DNA from: Candidatus Nomurabacteria bacterium
GTDB lineage: Bacteria; Patescibacteriota; Minisyncoccia; Phycocordibacterales; UBA9973
Assembly: GCA_023267275.1 (NCBI GenBank)
Contig: JAHFNO010000007.1
Location: 1 to 57,766, forward strand
Direction: 5' to 3'
DNA: 57,766 nucleotides
The notes beneath the pieces are model-generated. The model worked only from the letters and a program-made list of their open reading frames with translations. It was not told the origin of the DNA and made no database searches. The position numbers and the translations under genes were made by a program. Positions within the stretch are counted from its first letter, which is position 1. Each line of letters begins with the position of its first letter. This document shows positions 12,508 through 20,053 of this stretch, in pieces.

Positions 12508-13794
12508 ATGAAACCAATCAAATTTACCATCGAAAAAAAGATTCCAAACGCGCTTGGACGAGCGGGTGTACTTGAGACACCGCATGGAAAAATTCTCACT
12601 CCAGCATTTGTGCCGGTGGGAACAAAAGCTACAGTCAAAGGTATGACTCCCGAAATGCTCAAAGACGTCGGCGCGCAAGTGGTGCTCGCCAATACATATC
12701 ACTTGTATTTACAACCTGGCGACGAGCTTGTACGAGATGCTGGTGGACTACACAAAATGATGCACTGGGATCGTCCGACTGTTACCGACTCTGGAGGGTT
12801 TCAAGTATTTTCTCTCGGTGCTGCATATGGAAAAGGTATTTCAAAAATTTTGCATCCCGCCGATCCTTCTCTCCAGATTCCAGAACGCTCAAGCGCCGAC
12901 GAAGGCGTAGCACGTCTTGCGACGATCGGTGCAGGCGGTGTTTCTTTCCGTTCGCACATCGATGGATCGCTCCATTATTTCACCCCAGAAAAATCCATTG
13001 AGATTCAACACAATCTTGGTGCTGATATTATTTTTGCATTCGACGAATGTACTTCACCCACAGAAGATCGTCGCTATCAAGAAGAAGCGCTTGGTCGCAC
13101 ACATGCATGGGCAAAGCGCAGTCTCGATTATCATCATTCACGCAAAACTGCTCCCACCACCCCATCCGGAGTACCGTCCACCCCTCCTCAGGCAGGAGGG
13201 GAAAAACTTCCTCAAGCTTTGTTTGGAATTGTGCAGGGTGGTCGCGATGAAGAATTGCGCCGAAAATCTGCACAAGAGATTGCAAATATGAAAACGCTTG
13301 ATGGCGAAACATTCGATGGATATGGAATCGGCGGTAGTTTTGACAAAGACGATTTGCATTCGGCAGTGCGCTGGGTCAACGAAGAATTGCCGGAAGACAA
13401 ACCACGTCACTTGCTTGGTATTGGTGAACCAGAAGATTTGTTTATGGGTGTAGAAAATGGTGTAGATCTTTTTGATTGCGTTGCGCCAACACGCAACGCG
13501 CGCAGTGGTGCATCGCTCTATACAAAAGAGGGAAGAATGAATTTGCTCAACGCAGAATATCGCAATGATTTTTCTCCTATTGAAGCCGATTGTGGATGCT
13601 ATACGTGCAAACATTACACACGCGCATATATTGCCTATCTTTTTCGAGCAAAAGAAATGCTCGCTGGAATTCTCTCATCTGTGCACAATCTTTACTTCAT
13701 CATTCATCTCGTAGATAAAATGCGCGAGACTATTATCGATGGCACATTTGCTGAATACAAGGCAGATTTTTTGAGTCACTATCACAGGAAATAA
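12508..13794 (+). CDS. tgt: tRNA-guanine transglycosylase
   Basis: TPAFVPVGT, LANTYHL, TDSGGFQVFSL, GIVQGG, DLFDCVAPTR, CxCxxC...H Zn site. Confidence 0.97.
   Translation: MKPIKFTIEKKIPNALGRAGVLETPHGKILTPAFVPVGTKATVKGMTPEMLKDVGAQVVLANTYHLYLQPGDELVRDAGGLHKMMHWDRPTVTDSGGFQVFSLGAAYGKGISKILHPADPSLQIPERSSADEGVARLATIGAGGVSFRSHIDGSLHYFTPEKSIEIQHNLGADIIFAFDECTSPTEDRRYQEEALGRTHAWAKRSLDYHHSRKTAPTTPSGVPSTPPQAGGEKLPQALFGIVQGGRDEELRRKSAQEIANMKTLDGETFDGYGIGGSFDKDDLHSAVRWVNEELPEDKPRHLLGIGEPEDLFMGVENGVDLFDCVAPTRNARSGASLYTKEGRMNLLNAEYRNDFSPIEADCGCYTCKHYTRAYIAYLFRAKEMLAGILSSVHNLYFIIHLVDKMRETIIDGTFAEYKADFLSHYHRK
13151..13202. repeat. 52-bp CCCCTCCT/AGGAGGGG hairpin element in frame in tgt
   Basis: 43/52 identical to 17875-17926 in uvrA. 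Confidence 0.9.
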
Positions 13795-13798
13795 TTGC

Positions 13799-13881
13799 TG
13801 TTGATCCGGTAGTAGATCTTGCTGGTGTGGCTTCGCCACGCACTTCATAGTGCACCAGCAAGGCTCACTACCGGATTGACA
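13799..13881. other. multibranch inverted-repeat structure downstream of tgt
   Basis: Outer stem tgttgatccggtagt/actaccggattgaca, inner cttgctggtg/caccagcaag, two apical hairpins. Confidence 0.65.
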
Positions 13882-13935
13882 TATTTTTTGTATAGAGGAC
13901 AATAGAGGTAATAAAGTCACCTTAAATTTGTGTGT

Positions 13936-14307
13936 ATGAAAAACGGAGCAAAAACCCTACCTCCGCATGTAGCTGACATTTTAAAAACAGCTACGAGTGG
14001 CGTGCTGGGCACGGAACACAATGTTGTTTCAAGAGAATTTTCAGTTGATTGCAATTCGCTTCCTGATATTGCAATTAAACTCGACAATGATTCTAAACAT
14101 CACGAAGCTATTGTTGGATCGTCGGTAACAATCGTACTGCGTCCATCAGTATGGCAAAAAGCTGATAGGTACGCTTTTGTGGAGGGTGTTGTAAAAGAGA
14201 ACAATAATTTTTTTATCTTTACTGCTAAAAAAATTACTGTTCGAGAAAAAGGTGCTATGGTAGAGGTGTATGACACTTCTCATAAAGCAGCTAGTACTGC
14301 AGAATAA
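13936..14307 (+). CDS. hypothetical protein (orphan)
   Basis: ORF 13930-14307; promoter-like TTGACA-17-GACAAT at 13876. Confidence 0.6.
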   Translation: MKNGAKTLPPHVADILKTATSGVLGTEHNVVSREFSVDCNSLPDIAIKLDNDSKHHEAIVGSSVTIVLRPSVWQKADRYAFVEGVVKENNNFFIFTAKKITVREKGAMVEVYDTSHKAASTAE

Positions 14308-17193: not shown

Positions 17194-17328
17194 AATAAAT
17201 TTCTTTTCTTTATTTTATATACAAATTAGTATTTTGTCAAATTTAAATTTTATGCTATAGTATGCCTAGTTAAATAGCGATACACACCCCCTAGGAGTCT
17301 TGGCGGGTGAAGTTTGCGTGAGGGTCGG

Positions 17329-17388
17329 GTCATCCTGAACTTGTTTCAGGATCCATAATACTAGATCCTGAAACAAGTTCAGGATGAC
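17329..17388. repeat. GTCATCCTGAA element, copy 2
   Basis: gtcatcctgaacttgtttcaggatcc-ataatacta-gatcctgaaacaagttcaggatgac. Confidence 0.9.
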
Positions 17389-17401
17389 ATTCAAAAATTT
17401 T

Positions 17402-20053
17402 ATGAAATGCGAAAAAGAAAACAATCAAAACTGGATTCGTGTGAAGGGTGCAAAGACCCACAATCTCAAAAATGTAGATGTGGAAATGCCTCGCGACAAA
17501 ATGGTCGCAATCACTGGAATGTCCGGATCAGGAAAATCGTCTCTCGCATTCGATACTATTTTTGCCGAGGGTCAGCGTCGCTATGTGGAATCACTTTCTT
17601 CATATGCACGACAATTCCTCCAGCAGATGCCAAAGCCAGATGTAGAAGAAATCACTGGGCTCTCTCCGGCAATCTCTATCGACCAAAAATCTCGCTCAAA
17701 CAATCCGCGCTCAACGGTTGCGACGATCACTGAAATCTACGACTATCTTCGTGTGTTGTATGCGCGTATCGGACGACCGTTTTCTCCAATCTCTGGTCTT
17801 GAAGTAAAAAAACTTTCTAATCAAGAAATTTCTGATTTCGTTTTGAAGAAAGTAAAAGAAGTTCTCAAAAATTCCTCCCACCACCCCGCCTCGAGTACGA
17901 GTCACCCCTCCTCGGGCAGGAGGGGAGGAAAACGTGCTGTGATGGGTGTTGAATGGAACGATGCGCCAATCGAAATCTATGCGCCAATGGTGCGTGGACG
18001 AAAAGGTGAATACTATCAGTTGCTCTACGATATGCTTTCAAAAGGATATGAAAAAGCGCGCATCGATGGCAAAGTGCACAATCTGCGCGATCGTATTGAG
18101 CTCTCAAAAACAGCCAAGCATGAAATCGATATTATGATCGATAGTTTTGCCGTACATGAATTTGCCGATCGTCCAGCCGATATGGAAATGCGTCTTGCTG
18201 AAGCTATCGAGCGAGCGATTCTTGAAAGCGATGGACTCATTCGCATTGTCACTCCGGAAGAAGACGCACTGCTCTCCGCAAAACTTATCTGTCCCGAAGA
18301 CGGCTATGTGTTTCCAGAAGTAGAACCACGACTCTTTTCTTTCAACTCTCCGTACGGCGCGTGTGCTGCATGTAATGGTCTTGGAACAAAACATTTCTTT
18401 GGTGATGAACCATGTGATACCTGTCACGGTGCGCGTTTGCGTGAAGAAGCACTCAATATTTTTCTTGGCGGAAAAGAACACGGAAAAAATGTTGTTGATT
18501 TTACCAAGATGACTGTCCGTGAAGCCGTAGACTTCATGGCGACAATCAAACTTACGCCAAAAGAAAAAGAAATCGGCGCAGGAATCTTGAAAGAAATTTC
18601 AGATCGATTGCAATTTATGCTCAACGTTGGTTTGGATTATCTTGGTCTTGATCGCCGTGCGAACACGCTCTCTGGCGGAGAATCGCAACGCATTCGTCTT
18701 GCTTCACAGCTCGGTTCGCGACTCGTCGGTGCCATGTATGTACTCGACGAGCCAACGATTGGTCTGCATCAACGCGACAATGACAAGCTCATTGCGACAC
18801 TGCTTGAACTTCGTGATTTGGGAAATACGATTATTGTGGTTGAACACGATGAAGATACTATTTATGCTTCTGACTATATTGTAGATATCGGTCCGGCTGC
18901 TGGCGTGCATGGTGGAAATATTATTGAATCCGGTTGGCTTGAAAAATTGCTCACCGCAAAAACAAATCCATCTGGATCTCGCACACTCGCATATTTGCGT
19001 GGTGAAGCAAAAATTGCCATTCCAGAAAAGCGTCGCGATTCCGACAAAGGCATGTTGCAAATTGTGGGCGCAAAGATACACAATATCGACAACATCAACG
19101 TCGATATTCCGCTCGGGCGTCTCGTCTGTGTGACAGGAGTTTCTGGTGCAGGGAAGTCGAGCTTTGTCGATGATGTGCTCGCGGCAAATCTTTCGGCTCA
19201 ATTTGATAAAAAATATCGTACAAACAAAATTTATAACTGTGCAAAATTCCTCGGTCGTGAATATCTCACTCGTGCAATTCTTATCGACCAGAGTCCTATT
19301 GGACGCACGCCACGTAGTAACATTGCTACCTACACTGGTGCATGGAGTCATATTCGCGATATGTTTGCCGAGACTGAAGAAGCACGACTTCGTGGATGGA
19401 AAGCAAATCGTTTTTCTTTCAACGTAAAAGGTGGACGCTGTGAAGCCTGTGAAGGTCGCGGCGTGATTGCTGTGGAGATGCATTTCTTACCGACAGTGTA
19501 CGTTATTTGTGATGTTTGTGACGGAAAGCGTTTCGACAAAGAAACACTGAAAGTAAAATACAAAAAGAAGAGCGTATATGATGTGCTTGAAATGACCGTG
19601 GAAGAAGCAAACGAATTTTTTCGCGATATTCCAGCTATCTCAGATCGACTGCAAACACTTGTGGATGTGGGACTTTCGTATATAAAAATCGGACAGAACG
19701 CGACAACGCTTTCCGGCGGAGAGGCGCAGCGCGTAAAAATCGCATCAGAACTTTACCGGCCGTTTATTCAAAAAGCGATGTATCTTCTCGACGAACCGAC
19801 AGTGGGATTGCATTATGATGATGTGGCAAATCTTATTGATGTGTTGCAGAAGCTTGTAAATCGCGGCAACAGTGTGGTGGTGATTGAACACAATCTTGAT
19901 CTCATAAAATGCGCCGACTACCTCATCGACTTCGGTCCAGAAGGGGGAGACAAGGGTGGAAAGGTTGTGGCAAAAGGAACCCCAGAAGAAGTGGCGAATA
20001 ATGCAAAATCACACACGGGATATTATTTAAAAAAAGTGCTGAAGAGGAAATAG
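17402..20053 (+). CDS. uvrA: excinuclease ABC subunit A
   Basis: Two ABC modules ([34 protein letters not shown]) and Zn fingers; ATG 17384 lies inside the repeat, so 17402 is preferred. Confidence 0.98.
17875..17926. repeat. 52-bp hairpin element in frame in uvrA
   Basis: ctcccaccaccccgcctcgagtacgagtcacccctcctcgggcaggagggga. Confidence 0.9.

Follow-up and report, generated by a model that had tools for sequence, protein, structure and literature searches.

A palindromic repeat with a mirrored third tract, in frame within tgt and uvrA of a Candidatus Nomurabacteria genome, probably belongs to the intrastrand-triplex kind

How can two genes of one genome contain nearly the same 52-bp stretch of DNA when each of them reads it in a different frame? 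The question is raised by contig JAHFNO010000007.1 of a Candidatus Nomurabacteria bacterium (assembly GCA_023267275.1), which was analysed over its whole length of 57,766 nt (hereafter, the window; contig C30 of this genome, named G000, which has 1.02 Mb, 40.6% GC and 33 contigs). A pairwise comparison showed positions 13151-13202, within tgt, and 17875-17926, within uvrA, to be identical at 43 of 52 nt. The initial annotation had reported this element, its in-frame location in both genes and its use of different frames, and all of this was reproduced on recomputation. The frame offsets at the start of the copies are 1 and 2, and the peptides (one of which reads APTTPSGVPSTPPQAGGE) are unrelated. 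The two stretches are one structured element read in two frames. The evidence described below indicates that they are probably copies, in frame, of a DNA repeat of the intrastrand-triplex kind (similar to BoxC/PIT/TMECO) that is dispersed and polymorphic for insertion.

The first copy lies in the gene for tRNA-guanine transglycosylase (tgt, 12508..13794, + strand; TIGR00430, E 6.3e-135, matched in two stretches with a break at residue 213). It starts with a 5′ flank, CTCCC (13151..13155), usual for the coding subfamily described below, followed by a tract ACCACCCC (13156..13163), a linker (13164..13180) in which CGG-AGTA-CCG at 13167-13176 is predicted to form hairpin 1 as DNA, and hairpin 2 (13181..13201), made of CCCCTCCT (13181-13188), the loop CAGGC and AGGAGGGG (13194-13201). 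The second copy, in uvrA (17384..20053, + strand; NF001503, 1219.7 bits), has the same parts on the same strand: CTCCC (17875..17879), ACCACCCC (17880..17887), a linker (17888..17904) with a predicted DNA hairpin 1, CTCG-AGTA-CGAG, at 17890-17901, and hairpin 2 (17905..17925), with CCCCTCCT at 17905-17912, the loop CGGGC and AGGAGGGG at 17918-17925. In both copies the first tract is an 8/8 mirror of the purine arm AGGAGGGG. The nine mismatches between the copies fall at 13164, 13165, 13167, 13168, 13175-13178 and 13190. Eight of them surround the AGTA loop (13170-13173), and the remaining one is in the loop of hairpin 2, whose arms are the same in both copies. Two base pairs of hairpin 1 changed in a compensatory manner (13168-13175, G-C in tgt and C-G in uvrA; 13167-13176, C-G in tgt and T-A in uvrA), while 13166-13177, unpaired in the tgt copy, gained a C-G pair in uvrA. 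The clustering of differences around AGTA, the two compensatory pairs and the conserved second hairpin had all been pointed out before, and each was found as described. When folded as single-stranded DNA, all four strands were predicted to contain both hairpins (-11 to -13.2 kcal/mol). A 23-nt pattern spanning hairpin 2 matched twice in the window and never in 100 dinucleotide shuffles. A search of window positions 12900-18200 against Rfam 15 at permissive E-values gave no relevant match; on the copies, just anti-hemB appeared (16.5 bits, E 2.7).

A scan of G000 for the hairpin plus the upstream tract identified a family of 43 copies on 16 of the 33 contigs. The exact hairpin occurred 22 times, against none for a reversed control pattern, and a covariance model made from six copies recovered the same set together with sequence variants. 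The further copies that the initial annotation had suggested looking for in this way are therefore present. Copies in G000 measure 34-58 nt and show, on the sense strand, a constant order: tract X (ACCACCCC, 8 nt), linker, pyrimidine arm CCCCTCCT, loop and purine arm AGGAGGGG. A short form has a linker of 3-5 nt; in the long form, to which both window copies belong (17 nt), it is longer and bears a covarying hairpin. About nine head-to-head doublets were found in G000, often combining two arm classes, and among relatives head-to-head doublets outnumbered tail-to-tail ones (39 vs 11). A coding subfamily could be recognised by its CTCCC flank and CAGGC/CGGGC loop; its four copies in G000 are all inside long open reading frames (ORFs), and it was also found within long open frames of the relatives G013, G025, G034 (two copies) and G002. 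Many G000 copies also have a conserved stretch 3′ of the purine arm (A[A/G]GAAATACAA-like), and the unit may run about 10 nt beyond the three tracts.

Both hairpins covary across the family. In a model-made alignment of 39 copies, 93.7% of the cells were paired, and 60 cells were changed on both sides; shuffles gave 17.9 such cells, and sliding the partner gave no more than 9. Within helix 1, both-side changes were seen in five of the six pairs; the stems of hairpin 1 included CGG/CCG, CTCG/CGAG, CTGG/CCAG, CTTG/CAAG, CACG/CGTG, GTTTTG/CAAAAC and GCGCG/CGCGC, while GCCC/GGGC is the usual stem in other genera. This covariation, together with the two reading frames, bears out the earlier proposal that conservation acts at the nucleic-acid level. 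Covariance-model alignments were used because a MAFFT alignment of 28 copies misregistered the 5-nt and 6-nt loops, and RNAalifold recovered hairpin 2 only partly.

The upstream tract, overlooked in the initial annotation, is a third structural strand, and it places the element among the intrastrand-triplex repeats, not merely among palindromes like those of Rickettsia. The tract ACCACCCC mirrors the purine arm AGGAGGGG in the same 5′-to-3′ direction, with C opposite G and A or T opposite A. Moreover, tract X changes together with the purine arm at arm positions 4, 6 and 7. Seven arm classes, which are combinations of A or G at these three positions, were found, each with its own X; where the arm is not AGGAGGGG, AGGAGGAG goes with ACCACCTC, AGGGGGAG with ACCCCCTC, AGGGGAGG with ACCCC(T/A)CC, AGGGGAAG with ACCCCATC, AGGAGAGG with ACCTC(A/T)CC, and AGGAGAAG with ACCTCATC. 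In a model-free count in G000, 34 of the 41 perfect pyrimidine-loop-purine hairpins had an 8/8 mirror tract no more than 32 nt upstream, six had 7/8, and the exception was a truncated copy (contig C20:8160) that matched at 4/8; at random positions of G000, 8/8 was reached in 87 of 20000 trials. Among relatives, 146 of 154 hairpins had an 8/8 mirror tract and the other eight had 7/8, in 1.08 Mb of DNA around model matches from 20 relatives (60 regions that were selected by ourselves out of about 400 matches). Hairpins of classes that had not been searched for, found at loci from other phyla among the matches listed, gave 8/8 in 18 of 23, 7/8 in three and 5/8 in two.

Each position was then evaluated in an alignment made with a second covariance model, where X was placed by its own sequence and not by the arms (150 rows, two of which were dropped for gaps, leaving 148). 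At arm position 4, an arm G faced a tract C in 21 of 21 rows, and an arm A faced A or T in 121 of 123. The corresponding values were 137/137 and 10/11 at position 6, and 100/101 and 46/47 at position 7. In 125 of 148 rows, every position was consistent; 5000 shuffles gave 53.6 such rows on average and never more than 75. A permutation test by class, with mutated and non-complementary arms among the classes, was weak: four of eight matched, and 192 of 40320 permutations equalled this. Since seven classes spread over three binary positions, at least six switches are needed, each requiring three coordinated changes.

Watson-Crick pairing cannot give a mirror relation, and we know of no copying mechanism that would yield one. 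An intramolecular triple helix needs such a relation, which suggests that a helix of this kind may form in the cell. On the G-rich strand, all 43 copies of G000 show the order pyrimidine arm, loop, purine arm, linker and a third G/T(A) tract, and this layout (43/43) is that of a class II purine motif. The last G-rich tract, GGGGTGGT or more broadly GGGG(T/A)GGT, would fold back antiparallel onto the purine arm, forming G.G-C and T/A.A-T triples. This motif on the G-rich strand is favoured over a pyrimidine motif on the C-rich strand because tract X has A or T freely opposite A-T pairs. Intrastrand triplex motifs in bacteria were described by Holder et al. 2015 (PMC4666352, where Hoyne and Maher 2000 are cited). 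That paper states that RNA does not form purine-motif triplexes, and the selected fold is therefore most likely DNA. Selection would maintain this fold rather than the peptides, which could be why the copies are alike as DNA yet lie in different frames; a single-stranded DNA stage would also be involved.

A triplex of another type, made in RNA, was also considered. The C-rich strand is the sense strand in the singletons of the longer ORFs of G000 (8/8) and in 26 of the singletons in long frames of relatives, vs 12 in the opposite sense, as it would be if the C-rich tract X bound the mRNA hairpin through C+.G-C and U.A-U triples; pyrimidine-type triplexes are possible in RNA, according to PMC4666352. 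However, X mostly holds A, not U/T, opposite the A-U pairs (ACCACCCC in 70 of 77 class-1 rows), an acid pH is needed where four or more C+ stand in a row, and intergenic copies are mainly in the opposite orientation. An RNA-level pyrimidine-motif triplex is thus very unlikely, and the purine-motif DNA fold is retained in what follows.

The copies inside genes were compared with the corresponding genes of relatives. The 18-residue insert of Tgt was absent from the Tgt of 29 of 29 relatives and corresponds to a gap against the sequence of the Z. mobilis TGT structure. The uvrA genes of the genus, aligned across the copy site, lacked the element and were 45 nt shorter there; in DNA alignments with relatives, the net gain was 54 nt for tgt and 45 nt for uvrA. 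The comparison of Tgt and UvrA with relatives that had been recommended earlier thus found the insert missing from both. Further, a contig of a co-occurring relative (run X2, from another sample of the same study) skips 13133-13220 and carries the uninserted tgt sequence; polymorphism within the strain was not seen in the run contigs. Additional in-frame copies in G000 were located in GatB, RecG, KsgA/RsmA, a PaaX-like protein and three proteins without a Pfam family, and TruB bears an in-frame doublet; most G000 copies are intergenic. Of 250 copies in relatives, 75 fall within open frames of 200 aa or more (46 in the sense of the frame, 29 opposite to it), many as in-frame doublets. Copies would arise by insertion, and would persist in genes when the frame stays open and the site is a tolerant loop. 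The position upstream of tgt also varies: copies are present there in G015 and G013, none in G006, and a different palindrome in G000.

That the inserted peptides could instead be selected protein modules is suggested by the coding subfamily, whose shared flank and loop yield recurring peptides such as TPPQAGGE. The same DNA is, however, read in two frames in tgt and uvrA and occurs in both orientations elsewhere, the orthologues lack the insert, and the majority of the copies are intergenic; a role as protein modules is hardly credible, and insertion of a DNA repeat is preferred.

Some neighbouring features were also observed. The different palindromic repeat directly 5′ of the tgt start (window 12418-12500) has 36-nt arms, 81% complementary, with GATCCTGAA...TTCAGGATC units, and relatives have another sequence there. 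In a Tgt orthologue from another family (locus L041, G041:C3), the same Tgt loop contains an unrelated insert of about 20 residues (LKVNSSSVIPVKTGIQELHG), and this loop seems tolerant of insertions of different origin. In G002 (locus L079, C53:2857-2890), a reverse copy lies within a 1419-aa open frame containing uvrA, and may fuse uvrA and the upstream gene into one open frame.

Several points weigh against the interpretation of the family as an inserted triplex-forming repeat. No clear target-site duplication, which together with terminal inverted repeats would mark a MITE, was seen at the tgt and uvrA junctions: both right junctions are blurred, while the left junction of the uvrA copy is sharp against the orthologues (...AAAAATTC / CTCCCACC...). 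The regions of relatives were of our own choosing, as indicated above. An anti-register control was uninformative owing to the periodicity of tracts such as AGGAGGAG (35 of 154 hairpins reached 8/8), for which reason the random-position and shuffle controls were used. The copy counts overstate the number of independent events, since copies are related by descent, and the independent support amounts to about six class switches. Only the hairpins are computable by folding, because ViennaRNA scores no triplex, and the triplex reading rests on covariation. In addition, PIT elements are described in PMC4666352 as having no promoter, terminator or in vivo replication effect, and the fold may lack cellular consequence. 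Finally, the G-rich strand, which contains at least four GG runs in every class, could form G-quadruplexes instead. A quadruplex (or an i-motif) would have no need for a complementary pyrimidine arm or for mirrored A residues, yet both are kept, and the hairpin would compete with it; that the conserved feature is a quadruplex appears extremely improbable, and a triplex accounts for these features better.

The sequence of the repeat could also suggest a host-useful cis element, in which the hairpin and Shine-Dalgarno-like tracts would act in RNA as a signal for translation or mRNA stability, the in-gene copies being accidental. AGGAGG resembles a Shine-Dalgarno site, as does GGAGGTGAT on the other strand. 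The reverse-orientation tract stands directly before start codons at C7:20203, at C21:47951 and at a DUF559 gene (C9:5669), and the G-rich version is transcribed in nine of 12 intergenic singletons between co-directional genes. Such a function fits poorly with copies in both orientations, within ORFs and as doublets, with a presence that varies among close species and with the variable distance to the starts. Further, according to PMC4666352, purine-motif triplexes are not formed in RNA, and PIT elements show neither promoter nor terminator activity. A cis element useful to the host is therefore unlikely, and a repeat that spreads as DNA is preferred.

The sole DUF559 gene of G000 (contig C9:5669-6028; PF04480, E 5.8e-31) is bracketed by two copies, a reverse short copy at 5637-5670, whose G-tract GGGGTGGGGTGAT precedes the ATG in a Shine-Dalgarno-like position, and a forward copy at 6046-6079, 17 nt past the stop codon. 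The same was seen in relatives: among 30 DUF559 loci (the best per genome), 20 had copies within 250 nt on both sides, five on one side and five on neither. The initial annotation had suspected that full-length copies flank small endonucleases such as DUF559, a suspicion borne out by these loci. Two layouts were observed, with either the tracts or the arms facing the gene. Strong DUF559 matches (E below 1e-20) were present in 31 of the 151 genomes of the family, and 28 of these 31 bear elements. Among 120 listed loci from other phyla, five DUF559 genes were found, all flanked by elements. In E. coli K-12, the DUF559 gene ycjD has a BoxC-type motif about 170 nt downstream, and a hairpin of another kind upstream. 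The ycjD-fabI interval of this strain (L291 5230-5420) repeats part of the ycjD 3′-end and then shows a BoxC/TMECO-type motif, an arrangement resembling the scar left by a second DUF559 cassette.

The parent or partner unit of the family is quite possibly, if short of an even chance, a cassette in which two inverted copies surround a small DUF559 endonuclease gene (Vsr-like, PD-(D/E)XK). Recognition or cleavage of the folded repeat by the nuclease would be followed by repair or copying that spreads it, and the gene-less doublets and singlets would be derivatives of the cassette. Judging from these positions, the DUF559 nuclease is the best candidate for a partner enzyme, a role that we propose with nearly balanced doubt. 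Other facts speak against this association: five of the 30 DUF559 loci had no element in the scan, and 15 of the 43 element genomes had no strong DUF559 match, including G013 (17 element matches, 100% complete) and G002 (11). Shared ancestry inflates associations at the genome level, the positional evidence being stronger. DUF559 is not known to be a transposase.

Y1 transposases were examined as the mobilising enzyme and rejected; they are commoner in element genomes, but their positions do not support this role. G000 has five Y1_Tnp matches, inverted doublets resemble REPINs, and Y1_Tnp was detected in 35 of the 43 element genomes vs 33 of the 108 others, a difference that also counts against the DUF559 association. 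The repeat might thus be of the REP/REPIN type, with a RAYT-like Y1 transposase encoded in G000 as its mover. Against this, the RAYT-like gene of contig C28 (13841-14572) is framed by a different palindrome (GGACGGTCC type), the IS200-like gene of contig C2 has its own hairpins, none of the Y1 genes is bracketed by the element, and G015, G002, G036, G076 and G166 gave no Y1_Tnp match despite having 11-22 element matches each. Mobilisation by a RAYT-like enzyme is decidedly unlikely, and the DUF559 cassette remains the preferred candidate. The C28 gene (243 aa; locus L021, 13700-14580) has three GGACGGTCC-type hairpins upstream and one downstream, and seems to make up a REP/RAYT-like system of its own in G000. 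The gene on C2 (13200-13800) codes for an IS200-type TnpA (Y1_Tnp, E 1.1e-40), and its flanking hairpins are unrelated to the triplex repeat.

The repeat is widely distributed. With the second covariance model (R2), 42 of the 150 other genomes in the taxonomic family of G000 gave matches; by genus, with that of the window counted, the figure was 15 of 45. The exact three-tract motif was present in at least 120 stretches of species genomes; among the matches listed, these included Bacteroidota, Acidobacteriota, Proteobacteria, Chlamydiota, Cyanobacteria, Chloroflexota and many groups of the candidate phyla radiation (CPR). A search of 24 genomes from other families of the order gave no exact class-1 hairpin, which is a sampling effect, since the motif is present in many phyla. 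It is conceivable, and is put forward tentatively, that the repeats and the DUF559 nucleases constitute one pan-bacterial selfish system whose recognition signal is a folded single-strand DNA triple helix. If so, the triple covariation would be a sign from evolution that living bacteria form DNA triplexes and that these matter, their role in bacterial cells having been open since BoxC/PIT was described; natural three-way compensatory changes at three positions are hard to account for without a three-stranded fold. The nuclease would be the long-missing protein partner of the BoxC/TMECO-type repeats, and DUF559 is in any case a candidate partner enzyme open to purification and testing. Such a selfish system would be mild enough for the reading frames of essential genes. 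Copies in essential genes of reduced genomes illustrate how loops get added to Tgt, UvrA, GatB, RecG, TruB and KsgA. For annotation, the repeat accounts for odd Pro/Gly/His-rich inserts in CPR proteins, and advises caution before inserts are called functional domains.

The family can be compared with several known systems. The Rickettsia palindromic elements, reportedly described by Ogata et al. in 2000, are said to be roughly 100-150 nt long and to lie in frame in housekeeping genes. Like them, the repeat studied here is palindromic, occurs in frame in housekeeping genes in several frames, is missing from orthologues and is also found between genes. The earlier comparison with these elements is apt as an analogy because the element is missing from orthologues. 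Compared by description, the present repeat differs from them in its size (34-58 nt), its phylum, its third mirror tract and its association with a nuclease gene.

The REP/REPIN sequences with their RAYT (PMC2817692, PMC8266576, 10.1101/2022.05.22.493013) share with the family short GC-rich hairpins, singlets plus inverted doublets, persistence in lineages and a single associated gene flanked by copies. Here, however, the associated gene codes for a DUF559 PD-(D/E)XK nuclease and not for a Y1 transposase, and the Y1 genes of G000 are not flanked by the element. The Ssn nucleases with NTS/SRM repeats (Chenal et al. 2025, PMC11893778), for which a role in transformation was shown, also combine a small nuclease gene with its own high-copy structured repeat and have single-stranded DNA as the proposed substrate. 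Ssn is a GIY-YIG nuclease, unlike the Vsr-like DUF559, and the NTS/SRM hairpin, as described in that work, has no mirrored third tract.

Literature searches yielded nothing on the sequence family itself, on palindromes lying in frame in Patescibacteria, or on repeats linked to DUF559; the in-frame copies, the hairpin-bridged linker and the DUF559 bracketing were not found in print, while the supplementary ITxF lists of Holder et al. may contain the motif. The closest known relatives are the repeats named TMECO, BoxC or PIT, which have the pattern CCCTCNCCC-N3-6-GGGNGAGGG-N3-GGGNGAGGG. According to PMC4666352, E. coli K-12 has 23 copies of TMECO, always intergenic, among them five inverted doublets that join type A to type B; its triplex was demonstrated in vitro, and no function, mobility gene or partner protein was found for it. 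Like BoxC/PIT/TMECO, the present family has a C-rich arm, a loop, a G-rich arm, a short loop and a second G-rich tract on one strand; it is GC-rich, with a short form of about 35-40 nt, and occurs in tens of copies per genome, patchily among close relatives, in inverted doublets of two types and with no transposase nearby. The arms differ (CCCCTCCT/AGGAGGGG/GGGGTGGT vs CCCTCNCCC/GGGNGAGGG/GGGNGAGGG in TMECO), and the TMECO pattern is not matched. In the long form, the second loop is a covarying hairpin of 12-28 nt, whereas loops of 1-6 nt were admitted in the ITxF search; the short form is within this limit, and the long form, including both window copies, is outside it and hence a variant. 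While TMECO is intergenic in E. coli K-12, the repeat studied here is also found in frame within genes, and a DUF559 gene bracketed by copies is a further difference from the BoxC/PIT/TMECO report. The support also differs in kind, being covariation here and in vitro proof for TMECO; PMC4666352 contains no analysis of covariation (the terms 'covari' and 'compensatory' have 0 matches). The family can thus be regarded as a hairpin-bridged, coding-tolerant variant of the BoxC/TMECO kind, and the two window copies as passenger insertions of a selfish repeat.

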